Below are positions 285 to 63,897 of a stretch of 64,000 nt of DNA, in pieces. This DNA comes from a virus. The stretch spans positions 64,001 to 128,000 of IMG/VR virus record IMGVR_UViG_3300044692_000034, one strand, 5' to 3'. A program made the translations under genes and the position numbers. The notes beneath the pieces were generated by a model. That model was not told the DNA's origin and did not search any database. It was given only the letters and a program-made list of their open reading frames with translations. Position 1 is the stretch's first letter. Each line of letters opens with the position of its first letter.

Positions 285-1271
285 TCAGCCAACACCATAC
301 GTCATGAAGAAATGGCCGGGATAGTAATCGACGGTGCCGTAATCGATCGGGGGTGAGCCGTGCCCGATCGTCTTGCCACCGCCGACGTATATCTCCACAT
401 GGCCGCCGTCCGCCGAGAACATTAGATCTCCCGGCTGCGGGTGCGTCGCGAGCGTGCCCTTCGATATCTGATCGAGCGTGTCGGTCCCGGGGTCTGGCGC
501 GCCCGCCGCAAGGTAGATGGCCCTCGCCCACTGTGAACAATCTGTGCGGTCCGGTGCCGGCGGCATCGGGTTGTCAGTGAGCGCGCCTTCTTCGCTGTAC
601 CGGTTGTATCCCGTCTTCGTTGAGAGCGTCGCTTCGGCTGCGCTGATGATCTTGGCGCGGACGCCGGCGAGGTCGCCTACGGCTGCGGCTGCGCCACGGT
701 ACAGCGCAGCTTTCTCTTCGACTTCACTGACGTACCATTCGGCGTTGTTGTACGCAAGGATCGCCCGGTGGTAGTCCTGCGGCGCGCCGTTCGCCACGAG
801 CATCCTGGCTGTGGCAGGCACCGCGTCTTTCGGATCGTAGACGTCGCCGCCCTGCCCGTACGCGTCCCACGTACTCGGCGGCCCGTTCTTGATGTTGAAC
901 TGGCCGGGACCGGCGCAGCATCCGTACGCGTTGACGCCCGAGTGCACACCCGGTGCCGTACTCCGCCCATGGTCTGTTTCGATGCTGTAGATGCCGGCGA
1001 TGATCGCCCAGTCGATGTGGTACTCGTCACCTGCCTGCCTGTACAGCGTCAGCATGTCCGGTGGGATGTCAGCTACTGCGACGGTGCTCGGCGCGTACCC
1101 AACCTGACCACCGCCAAGGCCACCGACGAGCATGCCAGCAACGGCCATCAGGAAGACGTAGACCGTGGCGCAGAGCACGAACCCGGCGAGCAGAGCCTTG
1201 CTAACGAGGCTCGTGTCATCCCAGCGTTGCCGTGCCGCCCGAGCAGCGACGGTGACTTCCATGGACGCCAT
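285..1271 (-). CDS. CwlT/VirB1-like conjugative cell-wall hydrolase (TM + lytic transglycosylase + NlpC/P60)
   Basis: N-terminal TM; SLT motifs IYSIETDHG, AGPGQF, AILAYNNA; NlpC/P60 motifs DCSQW, PGDLMF, HVEIYVGGG. Confidence 0.85.
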   Translation of the reverse strand: MASMEVTVAARAARQRWDDTSLVSKALLAGFVLCATVYVFLMAVAGMLVGGLGGGQVGYAPSTVAVADIPPDMLTLYRQAGDEYHIDWAIIAGIYSIETDHGRSTAPGVHSGVNAYGCCAGPGQFNIKNGPPSTWDAYGQGGDVYDPKDAVPATARMLVANGAPQDYHRAILAYNNAEWYVSEVEEKAALYRGAAAAVGDLAGVRAKIISAAEATLSTKTGYNRYSEEGALTDNPMPPAPDRTDCSQWARAIYLAAGAPDPGTDTLDQISKGTLATHPQPGDLMFSADGGHVEIYVGGGKTIGHGSPPIDYGTVDYYPGHFFMTYGVG

Positions 1272-1786
1272 CAGCTAAGCCCCGTGACCATCCAGCGGCC
1301 GTGCTTCTCCAAGGTGAGCTTCACAACGTAGTGGCGGTCGTGAGAGTCGAGTACCCATGCGCTCGTCGCCGCTTCGTTCTGCGTGATGTTCTTCACCTGC
1401 ACGAGCAACACCTTTGCCGTCGTTCTCCCCATGCTCGCGGGGGCTCGCGGCGGGTCAGCGAGCAACTGAGCCTTGAACTCAGGCGCGGCGTCGTTTAGGT
1501 CGCCTGGCGCGTTGCCGTACGAGAACGGCAGGTATTCCTTCAAGAACTGGCGCGTTGTATGGCGCGCTCCGGTGGAGTCCGGGTGCACAGGCAAGCCAGA
1601 CAACGTACCCGGAACCGGTGTCCTGACTGGGTCTGGCGGCTTCTCCGGGGCCGGCGTACGTGTCGGCTTCGGGGGCTGCGTCGGGTGCTGCCCGACAGGG
1701 TTCTGCGCGAGGTACCAAGCGAGCAGAGCAACGGCTACCGAGCAGAGCGCGACAGCCGCCGCTTTAGCTCTCGTCGACATTCTCAT
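1271..1786 (-). CDS. bitopic membrane protein of the conjugation operon (Pro-rich linker, possible NTF2-like domain)
   Basis: N-terminal TM and Pro-rich linker; TGATG-coupled to the downstream hydrolase. Confidence 0.6.
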   Translation of the reverse strand: MRMSTRAKAAAVALCSVAVALLAWYLAQNPVGQHPTQPPKPTRTPAPEKPPDPVRTPVPGTLSGLPVHPDSTGARHTTRQFLKEYLPFSYGNAPGDLNDAAPEFKAQLLADPPRAPASMGRTTAKVLLVQVKNITQNEAATSAWVLDSHDRHYVVKLTLEKHGRWMVTGLS

Positions 1787-3854
1787 CCTCTTCGACGTCC
1801 GTGTCGTCGTCTAGGCGGTCGTCTTGCTCCGTGTGCGTGCTCTCGACAAGCACACGCTTCTTTCTCTTGCTGCGACGCAACCTCCCTACTGCCTCGTCGT
1901 GAAGCTCGCGCGGGGTGCGACCCTCCTTCTGCGCGCCGCCCTCTCTCGTGTCGGCAGGTGTCGGGTCGTCTGGTGCCGTCCCGTCCGTAGCGGTAGCGGA
2001 CCCGCCTTGCGGCACACCCCTCTTGTTCGGATCGTGCTCCGTGCCGACGAGAGCCCACGCCACCCGGTGATTGCCCTTCTCGCCGTTCCCGCCCCCGTCG
2101 TTCAGGGCGGCTAGTTCTTCTTCGGTTGCGTACCGGTACTCGCGCTGACCGCGCTTGCCGCCGGCTCGCTTCCCGCGCCGCACACCGCCCGCTGTGTTAC
2201 GCCCCGGCTTGCTTGCGTCGCCCGGCTCCTCCGGCCAGCGCGGATCGGTGGTCCGCGTCGTCGAGCCACTGTCGAGGACGGCGTCGTCGTCCTCTGTGAT
2301 GTCGTCGTTGTTGCGCTTGCCGGCGTTAGGACCAGCGTCTGTCCCGTTGCCGCGCTGCGTACGGGAGCTGCGGAGCATGGACCGCACCGGGCGCATGGCT
2401 GCGTACATACCTGCGGCCGTGATAGCTGCGCTGCCCGTGCCGAGCCCGGCTGAGCGCCCGTGCGCGGCCTTGGCCAGCTCGTTGACGATGAGCTTGCGTT
2501 TGAGGTACACCGTCCAGAAAAACAACGTCTGGATGATGAACGCGACCTCGAAGCCGGCCCACTGTGTGGAGACGAGCAGAGCGGCGCTGACCCCCATGAG
2601 CACCGCTATGACGATCGCGTAAAAGATCTTGATGAATAGTGCGGTGGCGAGCCGCGTCGCCCACCATTTGACGAGGTCGATGCCGCGCGGGAAGATGCCG
2701 GCGACGAGCACTATGGGAGCGAGCCCGAAGAGCGCGAGCGCGACCACCTGCGCGATTATCACGGTCACAGAGAGACGGCCGAACAGGAGCATGAGAGCGA
2801 TCGCTCCCAGCCCAACAAGGAAGACGACCCTGACTCGTGAGAGCGCGCCGCCGGCTTGCTGGATGTCTACGGCTGCGCTGTCGTTCTTGTCGATCTTGCG
2901 TCCACGGAACTGCGCCGCGTACTTCGGGTCGTCTGGGACCTCTCCGCGTCTGAGTGCGTCGTACTCCTCGTCTCGTGCGTCCGTGCCGGGCGCTTGCCTC
3001 AGGAAGAACTTGGCGTAGCCGCCGTACCCGTTTGTGTCCTGCGTCGTGCTGCTGCGGCACACGTCAGCGAACGGGTTGCCTGGCGCCACCGACAGTGGGT
3101 AGCTGTCGTCTTGCGGCGAGGGTAGGTGCGTGTCGACGCAGTGCTCAAGGCCGCCGAACTCCAGGACGACCCACGGCTTGTAGATCATGATGTCGAACAC
3201 GTGGTCCGTGATGGACGTGCTCGGGTCGTCCCCCTTCTTGCCCACCGCACCGAATCCGTTCAGGAAGCTCGTGCTCACACCGTTAGCGAACTTGACCGCA
3301 CCACCGATGATGTATGTGGGGTTTGAGATGATGACGATGCACGCGACAGTGCATGCCAGCGACAGCGCGAACGCTGCGAAGACCTCGCCGGCTCTGCGTT
3401 GCACGAGCGCTCGCCACATGCCCCACACGCCCGCGCAGATGACCGCGAAGTACAGCCACCCTTGTGCGACGACCTGGCCCTCAAACTGTTGGACAGCTGC
3501 GGCGATAGCAGGCAACGCGCCATGCGGCCCCGTGATCAGCTGGAGATTGAACGCCCACGTGAAGACCTCGATGATCAGATTGAGGCCGTTGCAGATGAGG
3601 TCCCAGCCTTGCTGCGCGAACGATTGCCGCAGCTCCGGCACGATGCCGCCCGGGTTCGTGACACCGAAGTCGACGTGGTAGTCGAGGCCGTAGTTGCTGA
3701 GCGGGTACCTTGCCGCGAGCCCTTGCAGCCCTTGCGTCGGCCCGATGTTGACAAACGGGTCGCTGCCGAGGTATTCGGCGAATGCGCTCGCCGGCCCGAG
3801 TAGGTAGATCCCGAGCAGCCACGCTGCGACCTTGCCGGCTCTGCGTTTGATCAC
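1764..3854 (-). CDS. VirB6/TcpH/ConG-like polytopic membrane channel protein
   Basis: Many TM helices, a central extracytoplasmic loop (KPWVVLEFG) and a hydrophilic C-terminal tail. The GTG start at 3854 overlaps the VirB4 stop (GTGA). Confidence 0.8.
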   Translation of the reverse strand: MIKRRAGKVAAWLLGIYLLGPASAFAEYLGSDPFVNIGPTQGLQGLAARYPLSNYGLDYHVDFGVTNPGGIVPELRQSFAQQGWDLICNGLNLIIEVFTWAFNLQLITGPHGALPAIAAAVQQFEGQVVAQGWLYFAVICAGVWGMWRALVQRRAGEVFAAFALSLACTVACIVIISNPTYIIGGAVKFANGVSTSFLNGFGAVGKKGDDPSTSITDHVFDIMIYKPWVVLEFGGLEHCVDTHLPSPQDDSYPLSVAPGNPFADVCRSSTTQDTNGYGGYAKFFLRQAPGTDARDEEYDALRRGEVPDDPKYAAQFRGRKIDKNDSAAVDIQQAGGALSRVRVVFLVGLGAIALMLLFGRLSVTVIIAQVVALALFGLAPIVLVAGIFPRGIDLVKWWATRLATALFIKIFYAIVIAVLMGVSAALLVSTQWAGFEVAFIIQTLFFWTVYLKRKLIVNELAKAAHGRSAGLGTGSAAITAAGMYAAMRPVRSMLRSSRTQRGNGTDAGPNAGKRNNDDITEDDDAVLDSGSTTRTTDPRWPEEPGDASKPGRNTAGGVRRGKRAGGKRGQREYRYATEEELAALNDGGGNGEKGNHRVAWALVGTEHDPNKRGVPQGGSATATDGTAPDDPTPADTREGGAQKEGRTPRELHDEAVGRLRRSKRKKRVLVESTHTEQDDRLDDDTDVEEDENVDES

Positions 3855-6298
3855 GTCGCCATCTGCCTTGCGCGTTCGGCGGGGTTGGTGTTGAGCTGCC
3901 GCAGGAGGCGCGGGCTGGAGACGTCGATCTGAGCGCGAACCACGTGCCCCCAGATGTCCTTCACGAAGCACTTGCCTTCTCGTGCTTCGACGATCATTTG
4001 CGCCAGCTCGTCGTTGTCGGGGTCGAGGTTGAGTAGCGCGAGCGCGTCGCGTGCCTCCTCCAGCGTCTCCATCCCGAAGATGTAGAACGTGCCGATGAGT
4101 TTGACGATCTCACCCGGGTCGGCGATGTGCTGCGACGCGATGAGAGACGTAGCGAACTTCGCGCGGCCTTGCCTGACAATGTCCCAGATGAGCCGGCGGC
4201 CACTCGGCGTGGCAAGCAGGAAGTGAGCCTCGTCGAGCAGCAGCGTCTTGTGGATCGTGCGGTCATTGTTGATGAGCCGCATGGCGAAGTATGCGATGAG
4301 CCTGAGGGTCGCAACGCTCAGCCGTTCGATCTCGTCGTAGTCGGCGCGACTGACCATGCTGTCCGGGAGCACGAGCGCGCTCGGCCGGATCACCGTGACC
4401 TGCGCACGGTCAATGAACTGGCGTTCGCCGTTGGAGAACGCGAGCCGGGCGAGCCCTGCCGCTGCGCGTGTGCCGAGCGCATCGCCGGCGGCGTTGGCGT
4501 CCTCTCCTGCCGACGTCCTCATGAGCAGGTCGATAACGGCTTGCGCACATGGCTTCTCCATCTCGGCGACGACCTGCGCTGCCTTACGCACCTGCGTACC
4601 CCACGTCGACGGCACGTTCGTCGGTAGCAGCTCCATGAAATACGAATAGGCGCCGTCAACGACCTGCGACCTCGGCAGGACCAGAAATGGATCGAGGAGC
4701 CCAGCGTACATCACCGGGTCGTCCAGATCTACGACTTCCACACGGCCCTTGAGTTCGTCAACCTCCTCCAAGTGGTGGTCGGGCTTCGGGTCGACGTCAA
4801 CGATCTGGCCGCCGGAGAGCGCGTCCCCCACCGCCATCAGCTCCGCCGCCGTGGTCTTACCAGACCCCTGCGTACCGGCGAGCAAGTACGCGCTCGCGCG
4901 GTTCTCCTCGGGGGCGCGGCGCAGGTCGTTGAACAGTGGCCGCTCGTGCCCGTGTTTCGGGCTACGTCGGTCGACGTACCCGATGTACGTGCCGCTCCGC
5001 GAGCCGAGATCGTGCGTGGCAATAGGCATGAGCGTCGCGAATTGCAGCGGCGTGAGCCAATCGCGGTAGTGCGTGACTCGGCCGCCGTCGACGCGTGGCA
5101 GGTGGTCGTAGAACGCCCGCTTTTGCGTCCCGACGGGCAGCCACAACTTCACGGTGCCGAACAAAGCCCGCAGCTCCGAGATCTTCGCTTTGACCTCGTT
5201 TGTGGTCTTGCACCCGCCGATAGCGAACGACACGCTCGTGCGGAGCAGCGGCGGTTGGTCACTGCGCCGGAGCCGCATGTCAAGCCGGCGAGCCTGCCGC
5301 GCGTCGTCCTCGGACGCCCATGACTTCGCGCCGGCTGCGCTCTCGTCCTCATCGCTGAGAACGTTGTCGGCATCGCGGACCTTGCGCTGCACCCTCGAGA
5401 TGGCCTGAGAGTTCGCCTCCCACTCCACATGCATGACCATGTCAACCGGGAAGCTCGCACGCTCCAACGGCGTGAACAAGAACTCCGACTCGCCGGGGAA
5501 GATCGTCTCGTCGGGGAGCGCACCGAGGTACAGGATCGCTTGCCACAGGACGCCCTCTTCGGTGCGTGCCTGGAGGAACCCCTCGGCGTTGCGGATCGGC
5601 TCGTTCCCGAGCGAGAGCATGTCCGTCCCGAGCGGCACGTAGGCGTCATGCCCGTCGTCGGTTTCGACGACCAGGGCGTTCGGCTCCCAGTAATCGTCGA
5701 GTGGTGGCTCGCCGTGCCCGCGATACGCGGCCCGCCGGAAAAGCCATTGCAGCTCTCGGGTGGTGGCACGCCGCGCCGGCAGCCGGTCCGTCACCGTGGC
5801 GTGCATTTCTTCTTCGGCCTCGATAAGACCGTTGATCTCGGCCTTGCTGATCGGGCGGAGCTTGCCGACACCAAGCGCGTCCTCGGCCGTCGCCCGGACG
5901 CGTTCCATGTCGCGGCCGAGCGCCACACCGAACCCGTCGGTTGCTTCGGTCACGATCCTCGGGATGAGGTAGAACTCAGGGAAGTACGCCTTGCGGCCGT
6001 TGATCTTGTCCTTGTGCTGCTCGACGAACTGGCGGAGCAGCTTCTCAGTCTTGTACCGGTTGTCGAGGTTCCGTAGTGCCTGCTGGACGTACGCCTCGAC
6101 CTCGTACTCGCGGTTGACGCGGTACAAGGAGTAGTCGGCCTTGACGTCGTGCGTGAACAACTGGAGCCGCGACGCCCACGAACCCTTGTCGCGAAGGTAC
6201 GGGTAGCTGATCGGGTTGACGCGGTAGATAGCGCCGCGCTCAGCGCCGCGACCGACAAGGATGTTGCCGTGCGCGTATCGCAACGGGAACTTGTTCAC
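3851..6298 (-). CDS. virB4: VirB4-family conjugation ATPase (TcpF/ConE, AAA_10-like)
   Basis: 815 aa; Walker A GTQGSGKT, DVDPK, Walker B LLLDEAH, RQGRAK..SQ; gene context. Confidence 0.9.
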   Translation of the reverse strand: MNKFPLRYAHGNILVGRGAERGAIYRVNPISYPYLRDKGSWASRLQLFTHDVKADYSLYRVNREYEVEAYVQQALRNLDNRYKTEKLLRQFVEQHKDKINGRKAYFPEFYLIPRIVTEATDGFGVALGRDMERVRATAEDALGVGKLRPISKAEINGLIEAEEEMHATVTDRLPARRATTRELQWLFRRAAYRGHGEPPLDDYWEPNALVVETDDGHDAYVPLGTDMLSLGNEPIRNAEGFLQARTEEGVLWQAILYLGALPDETIFPGESEFLFTPLERASFPVDMVMHVEWEANSQAISRVQRKVRDADNVLSDEDESAAGAKSWASEDDARQARRLDMRLRRSDQPPLLRTSVSFAIGGCKTTNEVKAKISELRALFGTVKLWLPVGTQKRAFYDHLPRVDGGRVTHYRDWLTPLQFATLMPIATHDLGSRSGTYIGYVDRRSPKHGHERPLFNDLRRAPEENRASAYLLAGTQGSGKTTAAELMAVGDALSGGQIVDVDPKPDHHLEEVDELKGRVEVVDLDDPVMYAGLLDPFLVLPRSQVVDGAYSYFMELLPTNVPSTWGTQVRKAAQVVAEMEKPCAQAVIDLLMRTSAGEDANAAGDALGTRAAAGLARLAFSNGERQFIDRAQVTVIRPSALVLPDSMVSRADYDEIERLSVATLRLIAYFAMRLINNDRTIHKTLLLDEAHFLLATPSGRRLIWDIVRQGRAKFATSLIASQHIADPGEIVKLIGTFYIFGMETLEEARDALALLNLDPDNDELAQMIVEAREGKCFVKDIWGHVVRAQIDVSSPRLLRQLNTNPAERARQMAT

Positions 6299-6855
6299 GC
6301 ATACACCTCCAGCCGCTCACCGTCTTTGACGTCAACTTCTTGTAGCTCGCCGGCTGCGTCTGCTCGCAGCGTCACACGAGTGTTCTTCATTGCGACCCTG
6401 ACGGGGGCGTTGGTCCTGACCTTGGCGGGGCCGTGTACTCGGCCACGGCGCAGCTCAGCACCCGAGATGTCCCACCGCACCGGCAAATCCTCCTGCCACT
6501 CCTCCCACGTCTCTTCCTCCTCGGGATTGTCGCGTAGGGCCTGGACGGTGCGCGCCCAGAGGTAGATGTGGATGGACCGGCCGTCGGGCGCTTCCTGGCG
6601 TGCCGCAAACGCCACGATGACAGCCAACGACCCGTATCTGAACCACCCGGGCATGAGCCCCATGACGAGCCCCGTACCCGGCGTGTGCGACAGCAGGTAC
6701 ACCACGAGAACCGTTCCGAACACCCAGGCTGCGGTCTGCGCCGGGATGCCGCCGGGGACCATCTTTGTGAGGTCGAAGTCCCATACGCGCCGGATGCGCC
6801 AATCGGTCCTGAAGACGCGTCTGTACGAGACGACGCGTATGCGCCGTTGCTTCAC
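6295..6855 (-). CDS. TcpE/ConD (VirB3-like) membrane protein
   Basis: SYRRVF..WRI N-terminus, two TMs and a PDGR motif; sits just upstream of virB4. The GTG start overlaps the upstream stop. Confidence 0.8.
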   Translation of the reverse strand: MKQRRIRVVSYRRVFRTDWRIRRVWDFDLTKMVPGGIPAQTAAWVFGTVLVVYLLSHTPGTGLVMGLMPGWFRYGSLAVIVAFAARQEAPDGRSIHIYLWARTVQALRDNPEEEETWEEWQEDLPVRWDISGAELRRGRVHGPAKVRTNAPVRVAMKNTRVTLRADAAGELQEVDVKDGERLEVYA

Positions 6856-7193
6856 GAGGTGCCGGCGATCTTGTGCCCGATCGCGGTGACCATGTTGACG
6901 ATGCTGCCGCCGTCGAACACGAACATGCCCGTGATGATCACGGCCGCGATGTAGCTGATGATGATCCCGAGCTTGCGTGCGCCGGGAAACAGGAACGCGA
7001 GTGCACCTGCGGCGACTGCCGCCTTCCACGGGGTCTTGACGTTGTCGAGGACCCAGTTGCCGGCGTTCTCACCGTAGTTCGCGTTGTCGGTTGGGTCGGC
7101 GAGCACGATGGCGGGACCGAGCGCTGCGACCATTGCCATCGCCATGAGCAGCAAGAACACGCGCCGCCCCATACGAGTCACTTGCTGCATCAC
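6852..7193 (-). CDS. TcpD/ConC or VirB2-pilin-like small membrane protein
   Basis: Signal-like N-terminus plus two hydrophobic helices; lies between tcpC and tcpE. Confidence 0.65.
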   Translation of the reverse strand: MMQQVTRMGRRVFLLLMAMAMVAALGPAIVLADPTDNANYGENAGNWVLDNVKTPWKAAVAAGALAFLFPGARKLGIIISYIAAVIITGMFVFDGGSIVNMVTAIGHKIAGTS

Positions 7194-8050
7194 TTATCTC
7201 CTTCGTTCACTTTGGCTACGTACCAGCGGTCGCCCTTGACCAGCACGAGCCGATACCCGAGCGAGTACGACGCATCGTCCTCTTTTGCTGTCACCGTCGC
7301 GTACACCTGCCGCTCTCGTCCCTTCGCCGGCGCGAGCAGCCCGACACTGTTCACCTGGACGAGCTTCATCACGACAGGGCTCGCGCCGAGCTGCGCACCC
7401 GGGAGCGCCGGGCCGGCAGAGACGGCGTCTGCGTCGCCGGCAAGGTACGCCGTGAAGAACCTGTTGACGACGTCGAGTATGTCGCTCGACTCGTCGGGGC
7501 TGAGCTGGTCGAGGTCGTCGTTGTTGGGGGTGGCAACGAGCGGCGCGCTTGTCAGGCTCGGCAGCGCGTACACGACCAGCCCGTGGTTCTTGTCCGTCTC
7601 TACGGGCACGCCGAGGTATCTCGTCACAGCACGCCCGTTAGCCTGCATGGTCACAGCGACTGTGATGAGTGCGCGCTGCGACCCGGTCGTCGTCTCGTCA
7701 GACACGGCCGTGGCTTGCACGACCTGCGCCGGGGCCTTCTCGCCCCAGGTGGGGACCACGCGAGCACCAAGATTCGTCGAGACGAACGACTCAAGGTCCT
7801 GCTCGTAGAACCCGGGGTGCTTCGGATTGTACGAGAAGTACGTTCGCGCGAAGTCCATGGCGTACGCGCGAGCTGCATCGTCAGGCCACTGCGAACGCTG
7901 TTCTACGACCTTCGTTGGTCCTGCCGGCTTCGTCGGCGTTGTCGCAATAGCCGTGAGCCCCCGGAGCGCGATGATCACCAGGACGAAAGCGACCAGTCCT
8001 CGGCCTGCCTTCTTGGCGTACCCCTTGAGCTTCGTGCGCGTTGCCGCCAT
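7190..8050 (-). CDS. TcpC/ConB (VirB8-like) conjugation protein
   Basis: N-terminal TM and two NTF2-like halves (AMDFARTYFSY; VNRFFTAYLAGD; YSLGYRLVLVKGDRWYV). Confidence 0.85.
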   Translation of the reverse strand: MAATRTKLKGYAKKAGRGLVAFVLVIIALRGLTAIATTPTKPAGPTKVVEQRSQWPDDAARAYAMDFARTYFSYNPKHPGFYEQDLESFVSTNLGARVVPTWGEKAPAQVVQATAVSDETTTGSQRALITVAVTMQANGRAVTRYLGVPVETDKNHGLVVYALPSLTSAPLVATPNNDDLDQLSPDESSDILDVVNRFFTAYLAGDADAVSAGPALPGAQLGASPVVMKLVQVNSVGLLAPAKGRERQVYATVTAKEDDASYSLGYRLVLVKGDRWYVAKVNEGDK

Positions 8051-8156
8051 CCAATCCTCTCCGTGTTGGTGGCCGCTACATGATGCGGCGTTCGTTCGGT
8101 GAGGTGATGGTAGCCGGTCTGTCTAAGCCGCGACCATCATGAAACGGTGCGCATGC

Positions 8157-8420
8157 TTACATCGGCGGGATGGGTGGGCTGCTAGGCGGCCCAAGCGACT
8201 GTGACGCTTGCCACTGCCGCGCACGTTCCTCTGAGACGACACCGTGCCCCTTGCAGAAGTGACACATGATCGTATAGCGGCGGCCGGTGCCCGGCTCCTC
8301 CCTGCGCTCCACACCACCCTCACAGCATGGGCGCGGGCACTTGACGGACCCGCTCCCCAGCAATGCCGCCAAGTACCCGCCGGGCACGATACCGACGTTC
8401 TCGCTCATGCCCATCGCCAT
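8157..8420 (-). CDS. small zinc-finger hypothetical protein
   Basis: CPRPCC and CHFCKGHG motifs. Confidence 0.5.
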   Translation of the reverse strand: MAMGMSENVGIVPGGYLAALLGSGSVKCPRPCCEGGVERREEPGTGRRYTIMCHFCKGHGVVSEERARQWQASQSLGPPSSPPIPPM

Positions 8421-8439
8421 GCTGTGACCTACCTCTCGG

Positions 8440-9036
8440 CTAGCAGCCGACCCAGGCGCCGGCCCCTTGTTCCTTGTAGATGCGTGCCGCGCACGCGTCC
8501 TGGTCTCCTGGCACGTTCACGTCCAAGCCTTGGCAGACGCCGCCGGGCGAGTAGTGCGACCTGAGCGTCTGCCACCGGCCCGTTGCCCCCGACGAAGGAT
8601 TGGTGTTCGCCGGCCCCGTCGAGTAGTTGCCGTGAGACTCGTCCGCGCACGCCGGCAAGTTGGCGGCCACCCCGGACGAGACAACGCCGCTCGGTGCCTG
8701 CGGCGCGCCCATGGTGCGTGTGAGCAGCGGCGGCCCCGGCCACGGCACGCGCGCGCGCAACGCGCGGAGCTGCCGCAACGACTGCGCGATCTCGCCGCAG
8801 TGCGATGGCCTGATCTTGTGCGCACCGCTGTGGTAGCGATACCTGACCCCGAGGCGCCGGATGTTCCTGCCCGGTGCCCTGCGCCCGAACTTGTGACGTA
8901 CGGCGTAGTACTGCGCCGAGTAGTCCACGAGGAGTTTCCTCTCTCCGCAGACGGTGTGGCTCTGTTGCGTCGCCGCTTGCGCTGACCCTGTATGGAGCGC
9001 AGCGGTCGCAACGAGGACCGCTGTTAGCAGCCTCAT
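8440..9036 (-). CDS. secreted Rpf-like (resuscitation-promoting factor / lysozyme-fold) transglycosylase
   Basis: Signal peptide; C-terminal CADESHGNY...GRWQ...DQDACAARIYKEQGAGAWVGC resembles the Rpf consensus. Confidence 0.7.
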   Translation of the reverse strand: MRLLTAVLVATAALHTGSAQAATQQSHTVCGERKLLVDYSAQYYAVRHKFGRRAPGRNIRRLGVRYRYHSGAHKIRPSHCGEIAQSLRQLRALRARVPWPGPPLLTRTMGAPQAPSGVVSSGVAANLPACADESHGNYSTGPANTNPSSGATGRWQTLRSHYSPGGVCQGLDVNVPGDQDACAARIYKEQGAGAWVGC

Positions 9037-9110
9037 TCACCGACCTCCTTCGTTGGAAGCGGCGGACGCTAGCAGCCCTTATCTGTGCATGTCCATCAGC
9101 CATATGGCCA

Positions 9111-10127
9111 CTAGAAGAGCTGGTCCACAGAGGGGTACACGGTCAGCGGGGTTTGAGGCCAGCCGCGCATTGCTGTCGGTTGCTCCCTGACTTGTAGCCG
9201 CTCAGGGAAGTCGGGCAGCATGTCGGCCTTGCCAGGAAGGCCGTGCGCTCGCGCCCACCGCGTCCCCATCTGCTTCACGTGGACGGCGGTCGGCTTCTGT
9301 TCTTCGATGTCGAAGATGGGTTGGATCGGGTTGTGGGCTCGCCACACGAGGTCCCACATCCAATTTTCGTCGACGGGGCGTGCTTTTGGGCCGCTCTCTC
9401 CACCGATGATGATCTCGTCGATGTCGCGCAACGACAAGCCGCCATCGGTCTCGTCATGACCATCGTGCCAGTAGTGCCGCTCGCGCATGTCACCGGGGTC
9501 GCCGGTCTGCATGTCGCGCGGGTACGGATCATAGCTCGTGGTGTACATGGGGAGTAGCGGCCCGAGCAGCGGCTCAGCGCTGATAAACCGCACTGCCGTG
9601 TTCGTGTCGCGAAGCAGGTCGGCGCGCGACACGAACGCACGGTTCTCGATCGTAACGCCATGCCAGATGTGCGCTGGTGTCGGAAGGCCACCGCCGGAGA
9701 TGCTGTCGGCTGCTGCGTGGTGTCCTTGCGACGTGAGCAGAATGCGCAGGTTGGCCCAGAACGCCGTGTTGTTGAGCAGATTCCTCATTCGCTCAGGGCG
9801 TTTGGTCAGGACGCGGTAGATGTGCTGTGGTGCGGCCATCATCGTCGCGTACACCTGCAAGATGAACCCGACCTGGATGTCGTCGTGGAACAGGTCGCTG
9901 AGCGAATTGACGAAGATCATGCGCGGCGACGTCCATCGGATGGGGACTTCAAGTCTGTTCGGATGAAGCGTGATCGGTATCTCGCCGCGCTCGAACCGCA
10001 TGCCGCGCTCACGGAACGGCATCGTGTCGGCGATGTAGCAGTGAGCGCATCCGGGGCTGATCTTCCGACAGCCCCACGTCGGGTTCCAAGTGTCTGTCGC
10101 CCATGAAATAGCCGTGCGACCAGGCAC
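9111..10127 (-). CDS. phage Gp37/Gp68 (DUF5131) radical-SAM-like protein
   Basis: TWNPTWGCRKISPGCAHCY, FVNSLSDLFH, LTKRPER, SAEPLLGP, IGGESG. Confidence 0.9.
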   Translation of the reverse strand: MPGRTAISWATDTWNPTWGCRKISPGCAHCYIADTMPFRERGMRFERGEIPITLHPNRLEVPIRWTSPRMIFVNSLSDLFHDDIQVGFILQVYATMMAAPQHIYRVLTKRPERMRNLLNNTAFWANLRILLTSQGHHAAADSISGGGLPTPAHIWHGVTIENRAFVSRADLLRDTNTAVRFISAEPLLGPLLPMYTTSYDPYPRDMQTGDPGDMRERHYWHDGHDETDGGLSLRDIDEIIIGGESGPKARPVDENWMWDLVWRAHNPIQPIFDIEEQKPTAVHVKQMGTRWARAHGLPGKADMLPDFPERLQVREQPTAMRGWPQTPLTVYPSVDQLF

Positions 10128-10833: not shown

Positions 10834-10994
10834 GACGTGTCGTCAGCTCCTTGGTCGATGTCGTCGTAGCGGATCGCTGCGAGCCCGTTCCTGAGGCCGG
10901 CCGCGACACCTTGAGCCGGCCGCCCGGCATCGAGGTCACGTAGCGCCAGCTCCAGCAACAACCTCAGCGATGCCTGCTGCTCACTGTCTGCCAT
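10803..10994 (-). CDS. hypothetical protein
   Basis: GAGGAG RBS upstream of the ATG. Confidence 0.45.
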   Translation of the reverse strand: MADSEQQASLRLLLELALRDLDAGRPAQGVAAGLRNGLAAIRYDDIDQGADDTSWRARVGIRH

Positions 10995-11017
10995 GCCCTG
11001 CTCCTCTCCAGAGACAG

Positions 11018-11045
11018 CAGAGCCCCGGCGGCGGCCGGGGCTCTG
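11018..11045 (-). terminator. hairpin terminator downstream of the Lys/Ala-rich gene
   Basis: Perfect 11-bp inverted repeat CAGAGCCCCGG/CCGGGGCTCTG. Confidence 0.55.
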
Positions 11046-11070
11046 TCAGCGTGCGTGTCCTGGCGTACGG

Positions 11071-11685
11071 CTAGGCGGCCTGCGCCGGCTCGGACTCGGG
11101 GGTGTCGGCGCCACCCTGGCCGTCGCCCGCGTCCTCCTTCTTCGCGGGCGCGGCGGCGGCGAGCCGATCCTCGGCCGTCCCGTCGAGCTGCCAGCCGTAC
11201 GCGATCAGCGCGGCGGCCACGTGACGCGGCCGGATCGCGGCGGCCTCGTCGACCTGGCCGACGAGCGCCTTGAGGGGCTTCGTCGAGCCGCCCTCGGACC
11301 GGGCGAACGCGGCGAGGCGCTCGCTCGCGGACTCGAACGTCGGCGCGCTCTCGCCCTCGGGCACCTCGACGCCGTCGCCGTACAGGCCGGCGATGACGAG
11401 CAGGTTCTCCGTGGTCTCCCCGCCGGCCTTCTTGAGCGCCTTCGTGAACGCCCTGTCCATGAAGTCCTGCTGCTTCGGCGACGCCGGATTCTTGTAGCCC
11501 GGGACGAGCCGGACGAGCTTCGAACGCTGGACGACGTGGTCCTTGTACTTCGCGCGGCCAGTGCCGGCCTTCTTCGCGGCGGTCTTCTTCGCGACGGGCT
11601 TGGCCGCCGGAGTACCCGACGCCTTCTGCGCCCGCGCGGCGGCCTTCTCGGCTGCGCTGATCGTGGGGGTCTTTTCGTTGGCCAC
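11071..11685 (-). CDS. Lys/Ala-rich putative DNA-binding (histone-like) protein
   Basis: PAAKPVAKKTAAKKAG tract; strong GAGGAGG RBS; has its own promoter and terminator. Confidence 0.65.
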   Translation of the reverse strand: MANEKTPTISAAEKAAARAQKASGTPAAKPVAKKTAAKKAGTGRAKYKDHVVQRSKLVRLVPGYKNPASPKQQDFMDRAFTKALKKAGGETTENLLVIAGLYGDGVEVPEGESAPTFESASERLAAFARSEGGSTKPLKALVGQVDEAAAIRPRHVAAALIAYGWQLDGTAEDRLAAAAPAKKEDAGDGQGGADTPESEPAQAA

Positions 11686-11740
11686 TTCGGGGGTCCTCCT
11701 CTGGGGTCTTGCACGCCTTGCGGTCGTTGTCTAGAACTCG

Positions 11741-11768
11741 ACTATACAGACGGCTGACCGGTTTACAA
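11741..11768 (-). promoter_or_regulatory. sigma70-like promoter
   Basis: TTGTAA-16nt-TATAGT upstream of 11685. Confidence 0.55.
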
Positions 11769-11804
11769 GGGGTTGCGGCGAAAAATTTCTGCGCCGCAGC
11801 TCGG

Positions 11805-12029
11805 CTAGTCAGCGTCGTCGAAGTACTCGTACCCGACCCTGACGATCTTCTCACCGGTGTCGGCGCGGCACGCGACGATCTCGTTCCCGCCGTGATGCAG
11901 GCACATCTGCCATGCCGCATCCCTCGCGGCGGCGGCGTCGACCATCCCGTTCTCGTCGACATTGACATTGGCCGTATACCCGAGCGGGCTCTCTTCGTTG
12001 TCGCGGTAGAAGTTGATGCGTGCGATCAT
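11805..12029 (-). CDS. hypothetical protein
   Basis: GGAG RBS; coding-like codon bias. Confidence 0.6.
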   Translation of the reverse strand: MIARINFYRDNEESPLGYTANVNVDENGMVDAAAARDAAWQMCLHHGGNEIVACRADTGEKIVRVGYEYFDDAD

Positions 12030-13261: not shown

Positions 13262-13267
13262 TTGCAT

Positions 13268-14409: not shown

Positions 14410-14623
14410 CTTGCGACTCCTTTATGACGTCGTCGATGGCCTTGTCGACGGTGCGCCGCATCAGCTCCTTCATCTGTGGATCGTCCATGTACAGCCACGG
14501 GCTCAGGTCGTAGATGCTGCATCCCAGGGCCTCGGCGACCTCGCCGAGGTTCTTGCCCTCGGTGCTGTACATGTGCCGAGCACGCGCCATAGCTTCTTCA
14601 GAGAGCCGAAACGGGCGAGCCAT
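14393..14623 (-). CDS. small HTH DNA-binding protein
   Basis: GKNLGEVAEALGCSIYDL; GGAGG RBS. Confidence 0.6.
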   Translation of the reverse strand: MARPFRLSEEAMARARHMYSTEGKNLGEVAEALGCSIYDLSPWLYMDDPQMKELMRRTVDKAIDDVIKESQGERGN

Positions 14624-38114: not shown

Positions 38115-38190
38115 ATCGCTCACTGCCCGATGTAGTAGTGACTTGGCGGACGGGCTGATCACCGACGCCCGTAGGCGTCCCCGTCCGATG

Positions 38191-38264
<74 letters not shown>

Positions 38265-54300: not shown

Positions 54301-54481
54301 TGAGCTTCGCGTCGTAGATCGCGAATGCGCGCTCGTCGACCTCCGCGCCAAGGTTCGCCTTGATCGGCTTGGCGGTCTCGGCCTCCAGCTTCTTGAGCTT
54401 GGCCTCGTACCGGTTGGCGCCGGAGTCGTCGACGTCGAAGCCGAGGCGCGCTGAAACGCCAGCTACGTCAAGATCGGCCAC
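48308..54481 (-). CDS. tape measure protein with M23 peptidase and lysozyme-like domains
   Basis: 2057 aa, Ala/Gly-rich with coiled coils; H..AID...YFLTHF...HIH (M23); AAIVESG.QNL.YGDRDSIGVFQQRPSQGW. Confidence 0.9.
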   Translation of the reverse strand: MADLDVAGVSARLGFDVDDSGANRYEAKLKKLEAETAKPIKANLGAEVDERAFAIYDAKLKEAEAKAKAKEKFRATLGADFDSRSFNAAYRQLQQEQKAAEAQQVRQHSQTASELIRIDSQKARQQSRIEAQAVEEQLKIDATRVKAQIANDALIQRERIKSDAEAERSARRRAEADEAAAKRSIQAADDTARAFTSVGRGGGGGRSGLGSLLSSLGPESNQSVNGLRQLGIAMRVIRSTGFVEAIGAAIQALSTFTAGAVGAASSLGPLTGLLATLPNYGSAAAQALGTIGLAAQGIGPAVTAGLNAQARASQNAVTAGSRQRSAAESLHNASRTLQQDQQAEKDSLVALNQAREQATRDLEDMKRASEEAGTSERAAALQVQEAQKALQAAQHGPNASRLGVEEAQNNLQQARDNLKDVQIQAQRAREDYADAQKKGVEGSDQVVQAQKQVTDAANNQAEALHDVGVAQAGVTTAQEKGTSAANTYAAKLKQLSPAQADFVKYLVKENTTYTALQQAAGQKLFTGVEAGVKDAMANFDVFRTGIVRTSGTLGDFIEVLGKFLGSDGFGRDLGTIMERNDKTIELVGKGLINLLKAVVDVTVAGGDLTDSISKTIYQWTVFIRNQAQATRDNGKMKQFFQETERVVHELLDITENLGIALYNIFKDAYPLGSDMLRILQEQAAVFKDWTESAKGENAIKDYFTNARPAILDAGGLLKDAAKEFFDLGDGRKITPLIDAIRQDLLPALHDLIENASTSFGPAFIQAVSQIIEIFEKLTGDHGPLVVFVGMLNTTLSLINEIIDKVPAIGTAIGALVVAGGLVKALRLAAAISGMNALIKLLRQARTIMAENDAAQAGGTIIGGGGGAAGAIAGGIATGAVARGGGSAAEGVVRTAEGVFIAGPTYEDARRARLAAAKAAATPVEDVALSRAGRVAAGARAAAGTVGAGARALSVATLGEGATSFLSKVSGPAAAVVALLTYMTAPGNPVQKAQKVLSNFTFGLVPDPLSGQRAQQARTNATNAQQASANLLNRSAAAVLPSFTTRGSQYFPGVTPGPAPRNPNQVIQTAPFTNVNQISGAFARAIAGKAGNEDLSALSRVLGLSVDEIQKLNKSTLKDLQKQFENLKPTIQGIQDQFGRFPRAFKQIRAQDILDPRAAAELFGNFNKIREQGVLNIKDLRDNIKFNTDEINKAFQQGSQSWSEAMSKNIGIGIKAVKDGMHDGSISAKDGTEQIHKFVQQNMTLVRDDLDSFSAQGKDKLASNFSAAADAIKKQMDRAGKTTKAGLTQVRQYLEQEMEVYGFSISEAKNIVKGQSYIGGPEEGSAGPTGTGTQPRVKANAHGGMASPYGGSSADDHILLDPTGRPVAAMSGTEGVVNEPQMQILDYALGFTQAAGGLPWGSLSQLWGSGMRHYAGGGMLQLPASFTPTHQTAGLPGYPAIDVFGKPGERVGAPVGGTIARFSGRSPSAGAYEGAGGPFGWSMYLSGDNKATYFLTHFGSRAVKVGQRVSRGQNLGTVGDYPGGTPDHIHEGEDKGTVMGVDASSATSAGAAAALPRVPQPKVKNGGAVGALANQVLKVATGVANRVLASASASGGVTGSFSGDGGKIHPDPAVVAAIRKAIQVTKASPVEQLSGWEAAIVESGVQNLGYGDRDSIGVFQQRPSQGWKHAGIPLLAAEDYFRAAESHRPWRGSAGSLAQAVQRSAFPARYDQVASQARQFMARGGAMRRAMGGKVRKFAAGGVLGTSGARNPYSVGSLRKVTGDNITAYNKVQAQLDTMQKQYTQKDRAYGQSQETFVNETTGDVNVDEVNQRVNELTDLYNLRIAIWHKLEEAYNVVKRIIATYDTIITNLTNSLTHAKQKDRSGIRASISHYKANMKNWQDIAGDLPFDIEDARLDVLDIAQERQSVAMTAPDRSIQDQNYEDSKQQPPDTTETTGLTADQQAQLDQANRLQQIVGYGGYINQSGVGVLGGVNNPNSVGAYGGPNVPSVSPALAGKAAAMGVDLFGGTGSGTTIVNNINTLTPGDPAMLTQIGKTVTSGLGYQGSRSASRISLGVV

Positions 54482-55688: not shown

Positions 55689-55747
55689 GATCCTCTCCTG
55701 GCTCAGGCTCGCGCCGACGTACGCCAACGCGAGCAGAGCCGCTTTGG

Positions 55748-57100
55748 TTACGTGAACGCCGGCTGCTGACAGCCGACGGTGCAGGTGTAGAGATCGACGC
55801 CCGGGAGCTTCTGGAAGCGGCCGGTGAGCCCGACCTCGGCCGAGCCCTGGTCCGGGTTCGGGCCGGGACTGTCCGGGATCTCCCACTGGACGCCCTCGAC
55901 GTCGATCGCGAACGACGCGTACGTCTGCCCGCCGGAGTCCTTCTTCTGAAGGTTGGCGGAGTAGCCGCCGATCGGCGGGACCCGCTTGACGGGCTTGGTG
56001 CCGGCCACCGGCGTGGGATCGTTGTAGACCCACCGGTTCCACTTCTCCAGCATCGTGTTGTCGAACAGCATGGTCGCGCCGATGGTGGCGCCGACGTTGC
56101 CGCGCGCGAAGTCGAACGGGACGGTGTCGTCTCCGTACACGAACGAGAGGTCCAGGTTGAGGGTGAACTGGAACTGCGTCTGTCCCTCAAAGACCTGGCC
56201 GTCGAGGGTGTACGAGCCGTGGCCCTCGGTATAGATGAGGACCGGACTGGACGGCATGTCGACGGTCGGCTCCGTGGCTTCGTCGTACACCTCACCCGGG
56301 TCGACGAACATGATCGTCGGGGTGACGCGGAGGACCTTGGCGCCGGTGCTCGCCTCGATGACGAGCTGCCCGATCCTGCCGTCGTTCATCTTGAGGCGCT
56401 GGATGCTGCCGATGGTGGCGCCGACGGTCTGCCACCACGTCATCCAGAACCCGACGCCGCCGCCCGGCTTCGTCGCGTGCGAAGCGTTGACACCCGGCGT
56501 GGACTGCACGAACGTGACGTGCGGGCTGCTGCCGCCCGTCAGGTTGTTCGTGTACGCCTTGATCGCGGGCATCGGGCGCTTGGCTCTCAGCCCACCGTAC
56601 GTGAGCGTGATCGCCGCCGGCCACGGGCCGCCCGTGCAGGTGACGTTGCCGGCACCGATGTACGGGTGAGCTTGGAGCGCGGCCTGCACCGCACCGGCCG
56701 TCGCGTTGAAGTTCAGCGGCGTGGTCGGGCGCCCCTCGATGTCGAGCAGGATGCTGCCGCCCGTGGGCGTGCCTCCGAGCGCGATGGTGTCGATCTCGTT
56801 GGTGCCGGAGAGCAGGACGTCTTCGTCGCCGTGGAACATCCACAGCAGCCACGCCAGCTCATCGACGGACCCTTCGACGCCCGGCGTGCCGGTGCCGGTC
56901 ATCGAGTTCAGCCACGTGGTGACGTCGCCGAACGCGGTGCCATCCGAGAAGTTCTCCGTACCAGACTCGACGGCGACCTGTGCGCCACCGGTCACGAGCT
57001 TGAACGAGACGTCTGCGTCGGTGGCCGGCGTTCCCTTGGCCGACTGCTTCGCAGCCCAGACGCGATAGATGTTGGTCTCTGAGAGGGCAGCGTTGGACAT
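55748..57100 (-). CDS. major tail (tube) protein with inserted accessory domain
   Basis: Gene position and high codon bias; NEIDTIALGGTPTGG...NATAGAVQAAL insert typical of actinophage tail proteins. Confidence 0.8.
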   Translation of the reverse strand: MSNAALSETNIYRVWAAKQSAKGTPATDADVSFKLVTGGAQVAVESGTENFSDGTAFGDVTTWLNSMTGTGTPGVEGSVDELAWLLWMFHGDEDVLLSGTNEIDTIALGGTPTGGSILLDIEGRPTTPLNFNATAGAVQAALQAHPYIGAGNVTCTGGPWPAAITLTYGGLRAKRPMPAIKAYTNNLTGGSSPHVTFVQSTPGVNASHATKPGGGVGFWMTWWQTVGATIGSIQRLKMNDGRIGQLVIEASTGAKVLRVTPTIMFVDPGEVYDEATEPTVDMPSSPVLIYTEGHGSYTLDGQVFEGQTQFQFTLNLDLSFVYGDDTVPFDFARGNVGATIGATMLFDNTMLEKWNRWVYNDPTPVAGTKPVKRVPPIGGYSANLQKKDSGGQTYASFAIDVEGVQWEIPDSPGPNPDQGSAEVGLTGRFQKLPGVDLYTCTVGCQQPAFT

Positions 57101-59903: not shown

Positions 59904-59907
59904 GCGC

Positions 59908-60237: not shown

Positions 60238-60245
60238 GTCGCCTC

Positions 60246-62276: not shown

Positions 62277-62289
62277 GGCGACTCCCGGT

Positions 62290-62577: not shown

Positions 62578-62579
62578 GG

Positions 62580-62831: not shown

Positions 62832-62832
62832 G

Positions 62833-63897
62833 TCAGTCCGCTGTCGTGGTGTAAGCACTCGTCGCGAACGTCGCGGGCGTTTGGGTCGTAGACACCGTCA
62901 CGCTCGTGCACGTTCCGTACTTGCGCAGCTCACCGCTCACGTTGGTGGATGAGATTCCTTGGACGTTGGCGAATGCCACGATGGTGCTGCTGCCGGCCGT
63001 GCACGCCGCATACGCGATTGCGGAGCCGTTTGACGAAGAACCGCCTGATGCTGCGCCCATCACAGACGAATTGACCTGAGCCGGCGCGTATCCGGTGTAC
63101 GTCGGCTTATGCGAGCCGTCGTTCGCTGCCGTAGCGCCGTCGCTGTCGGTGAACGCGAGGATGCTCAGCGCGATGTAGAACGGGTCGACGAGTGCCGGGA
63201 ACCGGGTCTTCTGGTTCTCCTGATCGATGATCTGGTTCTCCCAGACATCCGACCAGCCCGTCCCGCCCGAGATCGTGTTCGTCTTCTTCTTCAGCTCGTC
63301 GGAGGCGGCCTGCCCCCACACCGCTGCGTGCTGCGCAAAGACCTGCTCCAGCCACACGTTGAACGCATCGCTGGACAGGATTGGAAGTTGCATGTACTGC
63401 CCGGCGTGCGGGTTCAACCACACGCGCTTGTCCTCTGGGATCTCCGTCGCAGCTTTGGCCCAGGGGCCATCGAAGACGCATGAGCGTTGAGCGTTGATCA
63501 GCTCAGCCGCCTCGTTCGTGTTGAACGTCTTCTCCTCGCCGAGCGGTTCCTTGATCGCCTCGAGGCCCTGCTGCGAGAGCATGTACGTCTTGCCCTCGAT
63601 CCGCCAATGCCGGTGGGGCATGGCGAGACGGCGGGCGAACGTCTCCGCCGTCTCGTCGTGCATCTCGATCGTGTGCGGGTGGCTCTGCGCGAGCAACGCG
63701 AGCCGTGTCGCGTTCTGCTGCTCGTCCAGGTCGACGACGTACCCCTTCTTGACCAGCGCCTGGACCTGCTTCGAAACGGCCAGCTCTGACCTGTTCGCGG
63801 CATAGGGGTCCGTGCGCAGCATGTGCGTCACGTCCTCGATATTCCGTGGGCAGCCCAGGTGGACGAGCGTCCGCCTGTCCAGTTCAAGAAGGGGCAT
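62833..63897 (-). CDS. virion structural protein (C-terminal phage fibre/decoration-like domain) with an unrelated N-terminal domain
   Basis: WSDVWENQIID...YIAL...YTGYA..QV...SNGSAIAY. Confidence 0.6.
   Translation of the reverse strand: MPLLELDRRTLVHLGCPRNIEDVTHMLRTDPYAANRSELAVSKQVQALVKKGYVVDLDEQQNATRLALLAQSHPHTIEMHDETAETFARRLAMPHRHWRIEGKTYMLSQQGLEAIKEPLGEEKTFNTNEAAELINAQRSCVFDGPWAKAATEIPEDKRVWLNPHAGQYMQLPILSSDAFNVWLEQVFAQHAAVWGQAASDELKKKTNTISGGTGWSDVWENQIIDQENQKTRFPALVDPFYIALSILAFTDSDGATAANDGSHKPTYTGYAPAQVNSSVMGAASGGSSSNGSAIAYAACTAGSSTIVAFANVQGISSTNVSGELRKYGTCTSVTVSTTQTPATFATSAYTTTAD

Follow-up and report, generated by a model that had tools for sequence, protein, structure and literature searches.

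The mating-channel half of a conjugation system in the genome of a large tailed phage

Phages and conjugative elements count as two distinct routes of gene flow, and sequence classifiers allow only one of the two labels. How, then, is a genome to be read that holds a mating channel and virion genes in a single array? The question is raised by a 64,000-nt stretch of DNA, bases 64001 to 128000 of the IMG/VR record IMGVR_UViG_3300044692_000034 (this whole stretch is called the window here; "genome" positions are those of the whole record). The record is 141,737 bp long, with a completeness rating of 96% and no terminal repeat. A sequence-only reading of the window had proposed a conjugative phage or a hybrid between a phage and an integrative and conjugative element (ICE). 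One part of that proposal stands, in that an intact Gram-positive-type type IV secretion system (T4SS) lies in a single tailed-phage genome. The other part, a hybrid ICE with an intact conjugation system, does not, because no relaxase of five families, VirD4-type coupling protein, homolog of the coupling-type ATPase of related bacterial elements, integrase or ParA/ParB was found. We consider it moderately probable, from comparisons of sequence, that a tailed phage took up the mating-pair formation (MPF) half of a conjugation system of its host lineage long ago and kept it as a working gene set.

Seven intact type IV secretion genes lie co-oriented on the minus strand between window positions 285 and 8050, all of them where the earlier reading had placed them.

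Window 7190-8050, minus strand: TcpC/VirB8-like wall-spanning scaffold with one N-terminal transmembrane (TM) segment (residues 18-36); Pfam TpcC, 69.3 bits against a cutoff of 27, 5.5e-19.
Window 6852-7193, minus strand: small membrane protein of 113 amino acids (aa) with two TM segments, in the TcpD/ConC position; recognized by its two hydrophobic segments.
Window 6295-6855, minus strand: TcpE/VirB3-like membrane protein, 186 aa from the start in the GTGA overlap; Pfam TcpE, 27.3 bits, under the 29.9 cutoff.
Window 3851-6298, minus strand: VirB4/TcpF-type T4SS ATPase, 815 aa; AAA_10, 1.7e-46; NCBIfam TcpF, 9e-50.
Window 1764-3854, minus strand: VirB6-like polytopic membrane channel protein, 696 aa; NCBIfam CD3337/EF1877, 5.8e-29, and TM segments.
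Window 1271-1786, minus strand: 171-aa bitopic membrane protein ("X") with an N-terminal TM segment.
Window 285-1271, minus strand: CwlT-like membrane-anchored cell-wall hydrolase; Pfam NLPC_P60 over cutoff; PDB 8er5 and 6b8c.

The individual assignments were compared with the loci of a VirB4 family profile (80 metagenomic + 80 genomic loci, 160 in all, at 33 to 48% identity). VirB4 has the Walker A motif GTQGSGKT at residue 475 and a Walker B pair, D689/E690, that is invariant across the family. TcpC matched PDB 3ub1, an ORF13-like protein, at 3e-4 and has homologs in 49 + 51 bacterial loci; the TcpE-like gene, which occupies the position of the TcpE-annotated genes of the bacterial loci, has homologs in 33 + 28. 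For the VirB6-like protein, the NCBIfam match is to the mobilome membrane family CD3337/EF1877 (101 bits; curated threshold 120, not reached), and in 63 + 77 bacterial loci a homolog occupies the VirB6 position, with weak TrbL matches among these relatives. The 113-aa protein gave a weak VirB2/TrbC-like match (Pfam TrbC, 0.0023, below cutoff) and is kept solely in L011, the contig with the closest VirB4 homolog. Weak homologs of X occur at the same position in a few bacterial T4SS loci, and its atlas matches were to unnamed actinobacterial clusters only. The hydrolase comprises a lytic-transglycosylase-like (SLT) domain (aa 59-187) and an NlpC/P60 endopeptidase domain (aa 240-306) in which the Cys and His are present. 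Its SLT-like part is 56 to 62% identical to the closest hydrolases of bacterial T4SS loci; the one bacterial hydrolase that was scanned (L061) has a C-terminal CHAP domain, whereas the phage enzyme has NlpC/P60. Identity to plasmid-borne T4SS proteins was about 25% in the top matches.

The genes are translationally coupled. The start/stop overlaps described from the sequence are real, with GTGA overlaps at four junctions (7190/7193, 6852/6855, 6295/6298 and 3851/3854) and TGATG at 1271, and a 23-nt overlap joins 1764/1786. We likewise agree with the earlier observation that the Walker A/B and NlpC Cys/His motifs are intact and that there is no sign of decay.

Does this operon belong to a phage? 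The record is a single real tailed-phage genome of the long-tailed type. All hallmarks of Caudoviricetes are present (large terminase, portal, HK97-type capsid with protease, and tail genes), and the following virion and lysis genes lie in the window itself.

Window 48308-54481, minus strand: tail tape measure protein, 2057 aa, with an M23 peptidase domain, a virion hallmark in the same gene array as the operon; PHROG tape measure families, 2.8e-54; Pfam M23.
Window 55748-57100: major tail protein.
Window 42740-43570, minus strand: phage endolysin; PHROG endolysin families, 6e-21.

The phage module proposed for the window was thus confirmed for the tail, endolysin and recombination genes and needs correcting for the head genes and large terminase, which lie outside it. 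Capsid, prohead protease and portal sit just past the high end of the window in the same 141.7-kb record, and past the low end come Ro60, an RlaP nucleotidyltransferase, a topoisomerase-like protein, an SNF2 helicase and the large terminase.

Both edges of the operon recur in other assemblies. L011, an 8.2-kb Logan contig from SRR29078251 whose VirB4 is 79% identical to that of the phage, is collinear with window positions 1999-9673 at about 75% nucleotide identity and spans the junction between the operon and the DUF5131 gene upstream of it; a 3-kb contig from a second run (SRR29078107) overlaps it. At the other edge, a 4.5-kb contig from SRR29078156 (L105), with a Ro60 63% identical to that of the phage, is collinear with genome positions 61372-65635 and reaches from the end of the 171-aa gene through the hydrolase, the Y-RNA spacer and Ro60 to the gene after it. 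Each junction is thus reproduced in a diverged relative that was assembled independently, at 73 to 75% identity in contigs from other sequencing runs. The interval at 8.0 to 9.1 kb, which the sequence-only reading had singled out for a check, is conserved in L011, and the only detectable close relatives keep the operon. Composition gave no sign of a recent arrival: the tetranucleotide z scores of the operon (-0.9 to -1.1) are nearer the genome mean than those of most segments, and its GC3 (0.72 to 0.87) is inside the range of the reference phage genes compared. No convincing att-like repeats were found around the operon, only short imperfect ones, and six-frame searches of the whole record found no tyrosine (PF00589) or serine (PF00239) recombinase, in agreement with the earlier statement that there was no att site, integrase or composition break; no att-bounded ICE was found. 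Since there is no integrase and there are no att repeats, the block is not an ICE. It is neither that nor a chimera.

The genes that directly flank the operon belong to phage protein families, phrog_850 (Ro60) downstream and phrog_2045, 1221, 3230, 7371 and 318 upstream. The features next to the operon are as follows.

Window 9111-10127, minus strand: DUF5131 protein (phage Gp37/Gp68 family), upstream flank; Pfam 3.7e-61; phrog_2045, 1.5e-65; collinear in L011.
Window 8440-9036, minus strand: 198-aa secreted protein with a signal-peptide-like N-terminus, a candidate Rpf-like lytic transglycosylase.
Window 8157-8420, minus strand: 87-aa Cys-rich, zinc-ribbon-like protein between the transglycosylase-like gene and tcpC; 68% aa identity to L011, with a ratio of nonsynonymous to synonymous substitution (dN/dS) of 0.26.
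Window 56-124, minus strand: Y RNA-like (YrlA) element of the hydrolase-Ro60 spacer, marking where the operon ends on its downstream side; Rfam YrlA, 31 bits, E 4.9e-4, under the gathering threshold.

The 198-aa protein is 84% identical (aa) to its counterpart in L011, with a dN/dS of 0.145. No Pfam, PHROG, NCBIfam or PDB entry matched it; its nearest atlas clusters include members of PF06737 (Transglycosylas) at a score of 0.94, which we treat as a lead only. The 87-aa protein had no family match. Both genes accompany the operon in L011, the sole relative that covers the region, and neither had a match in the 160 bacterial T4SS loci. On the downstream side, the spacer before Ro60 (window 1-284) contains tRNA-like and Y-RNA-like elements, and the Ro60/TROVE gene of the phage (genome 62038-63864) lies 420 bp downstream of the hydrolase gene, an arrangement kept in L105.

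Is the module maintained, and how old is it? For the eight genes common to the phage and L011, dN/dS was 0.15 to 0.26 (0.16 for VirB4) at a dS of 0.8 to 1.9; these ratios are approximate because dS is near 1 and so close to saturation. All open reading frames (ORFs) are intact in both. Judging from these comparisons, the operon is under purifying selection and decay is excluded. In a VirB4 tree, the phage and L011 form a fully supported clade on a stem of 1.34 substitutions per site, which falls within the diversity of the family at a poorly resolved attachment point. Of 96 near-invariant VirB4 positions the phage retains 82, where the bacterial median is 99%; L011 shares 12 of the 14 changes. 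The long stem and the 14 changed positions are what would be expected if the module was acquired long ago and then adapted to different partners, as far as the sequences indicate.

The source of the module points to a particular bacterial lineage. Named genomes in the VirB4 family are almost all Solirubrobacterales or other Thermoleophilia (Solirubrobacter, Conexibacter, Patulibacter, Gaiellales), the nearest bacterial copies being 45 to 48% identical to the phage VirB4, and the named bacterial homologs of Ro60 come from the same lineage. Because the VirB4 family and the Ro60 homologs both point there, the host of the phage is probably a member of the Solirubrobacterales. The T4SS family is often multicopy in this order, with two loci in OY970210.1 and four in assembly JAFDWB01 (loci L106-L185).

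What the bacterial elements have, and the phage lacks, can be read from a comparison of the two. When all phage proteins were searched by tblastn against the 160 loci, only TcpC, TcpE, VirB4, the VirB6-like protein, the 171-aa protein and the hydrolase gave matches. Clustering of the VirB4 neighbours in long loci revealed that the bacterial elements add an SLT+CHAP hydrolase, a Replic_Relax relaxase (6 loci), a VirD4-type coupling protein (3 loci), ParA and C5 methylases. In addition, 17 bacterial loci (L096, L010, L098, L104 and others) encode a membrane-anchored P-loop protein, 895 aa long in a family that ranges from 875 to 1080 aa. This family has the Walker A motif GRSR[YW]GKT and no Pfam model, and in L010 its gene directly precedes that of the Replic_Relax relaxase. 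It is probably the coupling protein of the Solirubrobacterales conjugative elements. Two further peculiarities of the bacterial relatives were observed. In some, VirB4 is encoded by two neighbouring ORFs (587+223 aa and 619+184 aa; L010 and a 26.8-kb JGI contig). A 16.2-kb contig, JGI Ga0136621_1000455 (L015), carries a near-perfect inverted duplication of the T4SS operon whose arms meet inside the VirB6-like gene, and represents either a fold-back during assembly or a true palindromic element.

No part of the DNA-processing half was found in the phage. Five relaxase families (Relaxase, Replic_Relax, Rep_trans, TrwC and MobA/MobL; PF03432, PF13814, PF02486, PF08751 and PF03389) had no match in six-frame translations of the 141.7 kb, a search that did not cover MOB_V, H, C and B, and a scan for a cryptic relaxase by its 3-His motif found none in any coding frame. 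Neither a VirD4-type coupling protein (PF02534, 141.7 kb) nor the 895-aa ATPase (family hidden Markov model, six frames) matched the phage, and the record gave no match to the partition genes ParA/ParB (PF02195, PF01656). Since neither a relaxase of these families nor a cognate coupling protein was found, the phage, as judged from its sequence, holds the mating-channel half only and not a self-sufficient canonical conjugation system.

The genome does encode a putative DNA pump of a different type, distant from the operon.

Genome 140224-141642, outside the window: membrane-anchored ATPase of the FtsK/SpoIIIE family, 472 aa; Pfam FtsK_SpoIIIE over cutoff.

This protein has two N-terminal hydrophobic segments and a Walker A motif, and its best NCBIfam match is the plasmid transfer protein TraB (5e-13; 48 bits against an equivalog cutoff of 800). 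Small Streptomyces plasmids have FtsK/SpoIIIE proteins to which it is 34 to 38% identical (E 1e-36 to 1e-41), among them that of pSVH1, the model TraB; matches to FtsK-like genes of actinophages reached 1e-7 to 1e-10 only. An exhaustive search recovered a large family of full-length homologs at 35 to 45% identity. Two full-length homologs with long contexts (43% identical) sit inside FtsK-RepSA-Xis-Int elements, the layout of pSAM2-type actinomycete integrative and conjugative elements (AICEs). The architecture of the phage protein, a membrane anchor plus an ATPase, is TcpA-like, but its relatives are TraB/TraSA-type AICE translocases that are not linked to a T4SS. TraB alone moves double-stranded DNA (dsDNA) and needs no relaxase (PMC4447253, PMC3429521). 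A phage with this gene content might therefore transfer DNA independently of virions.

The opposite end of the contig is unusual in composition. Its first 1.9 to 2 kb (genome 1-2000) have a GC content of 72 to 74%, compared with about 65% elsewhere, and a tetranucleotide z of 4.6. Hairpins and palindromes are densely packed there (GAGCGGCCCG..CGGGCCGCTC twice, CGGATGNGCNCATCCG three times), and contig bases 238-1900 contain 7 of the 12 genome-wide clusters of 8-mer repeats, against 0 to 1 in shuffled sequences. Possible roles for this end are those of an origin, a packaging site or terminus, or a site akin to clt, the locus whose clustered 8-bp repeats TraB recognises. It would sit just upstream of the TraB-like gene only if the map were circular, and a circular junction was not observed. 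An origin of these 2 kb as host flank was considered and is not supported; the longest ORF is without any homolog, and there is no tRNA nearby.

What, then, might the channel do? In an infected cell, VirB4, the VirB6-like and TcpE-like proteins, TcpC and the wall hydrolases would assemble into an envelope-spanning channel: VirB4 would supply the energy, the VirB6-like and TcpE-like proteins would form the membrane part, TcpC would be the wall scaffold, and the hydrolases would open the peptidoglycan. The gene content suggests that the phage may pass material from cell to cell as well as via virions. We tentatively propose phage dsDNA, moved with the TraB-type pump, as a possible cargo; fed into the channel by this TraB/TraSA-type translocase, such DNA would spread by contact to neighbouring cells. 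That the phage is a dual-route element, whose translocase pumps unprocessed dsDNA through the VirB4/VirB6/VirB8 channel into adjacent cells, we regard as rather unlikely. Several points weigh against the main reading, an old uptake of the channel half with DNA as a possible cargo. Known DNA-moving VirB4 channels use a VirD4 or TcpA coupling protein together with a relaxase, and we know of no TraB system that uses a VirB4 channel. About 68 kb separate the TraB-like gene from the operon, with nothing to tie the two functionally, its score is far under the TraB equivalog cutoff, and FtsK-like genes are present in many large actinophages. A phage without lysogeny genes kills its cell, which limits the time for conjugation-like transfer. 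To these must be added the relaxase families outside the search, the near-saturated dS, and the nature of the relatives, which are short contigs (3 to 8 kb), none of them reaching virion genes; their status as related phages is inferred from the 73 to 75% collinear identity.

Alternatively, the channel may have been repurposed for a job other than moving DNA, such as exporting proteins (effectors or toxins that act on neighbours), remodelling the thick envelope for virion release or entry, or blocking conjugation or superinfection. T4SSs that lack VirD4 are known (Bordetella Ptl, Brucella VirB, Helicobacter ComB), and the lack of a relaxase and cognate coupling protein, the 14 altered near-invariant VirB4 positions, which suggest changed partners, the two phage-specific secreted or small proteins upstream and a hydrolase whose C-terminal peptidase domain is unlike that of the scanned bacterial enzyme all agree with such a change. 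However, no candidate effector was identified, the phage already has an endolysin and the M23 domain of its tape measure, and a seven-gene machine seems costly to keep just for exclusion or lysis. We give repurposing real weight, well short of belief. A canonical conjugative phage, in which an unrecognised relaxase would nick an oriT, single-stranded DNA would leave via the T4SS and the FtsK-like protein would act as a TcpA-type coupler, is distinctly improbable. In its favour, no part of the MPF set is missing and the set is under selection, the phage ATPase of the FtsK family has the TcpA-type anchor and ATPase architecture, and many phage genes are unannotated; yet the six-frame searches for five relaxase families and the scan of coding frames for a 3-His motif returned nothing, and from 160 related loci only MPF genes have phage homologs, the Replic_Relax relaxase and the 895-aa ATPase having been left behind.

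That missing half might instead be lent by the host, if the relaxase and coupling protein of resident elements served the phage channel, or if the channel boosted the transfer of those elements. The T4SS family is widespread, at one to four copies per Solirubrobacterales genome, and the phage kept exactly the half that resident elements could complement. Compatibility between the two is doubtful, though, because the phage VirB4 is merely 45 to 48% identical to the nearest bacterial copies and is altered at conserved sites; nor was an oriT identified, the family having no oriT model. We consider such sharing improbable. A non-functional passenger, that is, a captured ICE fragment yet to be lost, would explain why half of the ancestral system is absent, but sits poorly with genes that are intact in two lineages at a dS of about 1 with dN/dS of 0.15 to 0.26, with translational coupling that has been kept, with a fully phage-like composition and with a long stem branch, and is very improbable. 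Hardly credible is an assembly chimera, or a separate ICE beside or inside a chromosomal prophage: the contig was assembled from a metagenome and its first 2 kb are unusually GC rich, but both junctions were reproduced at 73 to 75% identity in different runs, there are >60 kb of phage genes on each side, and no integrase, att repeat or composition step was found. An old uptake of the MPF half, with the channel kept as a working gene set, is the reading that we prefer.

How does the phage operon compare with known systems? It shares its components, their order and their translational coupling with the MPF_FATA systems (ICEBs1 ConB-ConG/CwlT, Tn916 and pCW3 TcpC-TcpH): VirB8-like TcpC, a small membrane protein, a TcpE-like (VirB3-like) protein, VirB4/TcpF, a VirB6-like protein and a bifunctional wall hydrolase. 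Unlike them, it has no relaxase, cognate coupling protein or integrase and sits in a tailed-phage genome. Every MPF gene has its closest relatives, in the same order, in the T4SS elements of Solirubrobacterales/Thermoleophilia (e.g., L107, Solirubrobacter deserti NZ_JAPCID010000003.1), with identities of 45 to 48% for VirB4 and about 60% for the SLT-like part of the hydrolase. These elements carry Replic_Relax, a VirD4-type or 895-aa protein, ParA and methylases, of which the phage has no homologs, whereas the phage adds its two upstream genes. The 472-aa ATPase is 34 to 45% identical to TraB/TraSA of Streptomyces plasmids and AICEs (pSVH1, pSAM2-type) but is shorter than the pSVH1 TraB (772 aa), and no RepSA, Int or Spd genes were seen beside it.

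Phage and conjugative functions have been joined in one unit before. The Escherichia coli phage-plasmid cointegrate p1002-1 is a fusion of complete elements (bioRxiv 10.1101/2025.03.14.643293), the Streptococcus phage-ICE tandems are complete elements lying side by side, each with its full machinery (PMC13651849), and the "conjugative prophage" Phi1207.3 is a prophage reported to transfer conjugally (PMC4260502). The present phage resembles all three in this respect; it differs from p1002-1 and the tandems in having the channel half only, deeply assimilated, with no integrase or partition genes. In the parts of it available to us, a phage-plasmid survey that screened phages for conjugation genes reported no MPF-bearing tailed phage (PMC7969092). 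The nearest published idea is the translocon proposed for SPP1 gp32, an ATPase with a VirB4/TrwB/FtsK-like fold (by HHpred only), together with gp31.1/31.2 (Godinho et al. 2018, PMC6316719). That paper mentions no VirB8-like, VirB6-like or hydrolase partners, whereas the phage described here has a recognisable full MPF core. We came across no report of a phage that carries a full channel set. Among INPHARED genomes, VirB4 matched three Firmicutes prophage records only, at about 25%, the best-matching feature being labelled a conjugative transposon protein. Three IMG/VR sequences of 175 to 198 kb with "VirB4-like" matches at 22 to 26% (L022-L024) were rejected as T4SS; the match in L022 is a stand-alone 418-aa ATPase without the N-terminal half of VirB4. 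No close IMG/VR relatives were found with VirB4, whether as a single sequence or as a profile.

The locus thus presents a complete, selected mating-channel set assimilated in a large phage in which nothing points to integration or to life as a plasmid, along with a gene for a putative plasmid-type dsDNA pump elsewhere in the genome. Should the channel carry phage DNA, the phage could do without free virions and receptors in its spread, and this would matter for soil phage ecology, host-range prediction and the classification of elements. If the TraB-type pump works with the VirB4 channel, the phage would join T4SS-type and TraB-type transfer, which in Actinomycetota are regarded as two mechanistically different systems (PMC3429521). 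If the channel exports proteins, it would be a phage-encoded T4SS that acts on neighbours, of which we found no published description. These possibilities are testable in a cultivable order, with isolates of Solirubrobacter, Conexibacter and Patulibacter. For their part, the Solirubrobacterales carry an abundant, uncharacterised family of T4SS elements with a coupling-type ATPase that has no Pfam model.

The remaining features of the genome concern the phage itself. GC content is about 64 to 65% throughout the window, and the minus strand carries nearly all convincing genes. The window also encodes a 909-aa Ig-domain tail or fibre protein; RecT with a PD-(D/E)XK exonuclease; Ku, a class II ribonucleotide reductase and two DNA methylases; and DUF932, an HNH endonuclease and a deoxynucleoside monophosphate (dNMP) phosphatase. 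No recognisable lysogeny genes were found in the 141.7-kb record. The capsid is 36 to 42% identical to those of Rhodococcus, Mycobacterium and Gordonia phages, and an IMG/VR search with it found only relatives at 46 to 47%, on short contigs. The large terminase gene (genome 43000-44652) is about 86 kb from the portal gene (131121-132854) on the contig, or about 52 kb if the map is circular, unlike most tailed phages, in which the two adjoin; in a distant relative (L008), both matches lie on one 16-kb contig. There are three phage tRNAs, one for Met at window 38190-38264 and those for Tyr and Ser outside the window (genome 37857-38036).

Transcription signals were also surveyed. A strict leaderless promoter-like motif (TTGNNN, 16-17 nt, TAGTCT-like, 6-7 nt, ATGCC) is present eleven times at genome 9000-32100, always on the minus strand, with no plus-strand copy. 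The motif is restricted to this region of small genes (genome 9-32 kb), with none near the T4SS operon, and a scan for sigma-70 promoters and terminators around the operon gave no excess over the shuffled expectation. Three products of the window (10964-11968, 14598-15893 and 18539-19318) had no Pfam or PHROG match. The second of these, a 431-aa protein without a family match, has its start overlapped by the Ku homolog (window 15890-16819), and the two may form an end-joining pair in which Ku works with an unrecognised partner.

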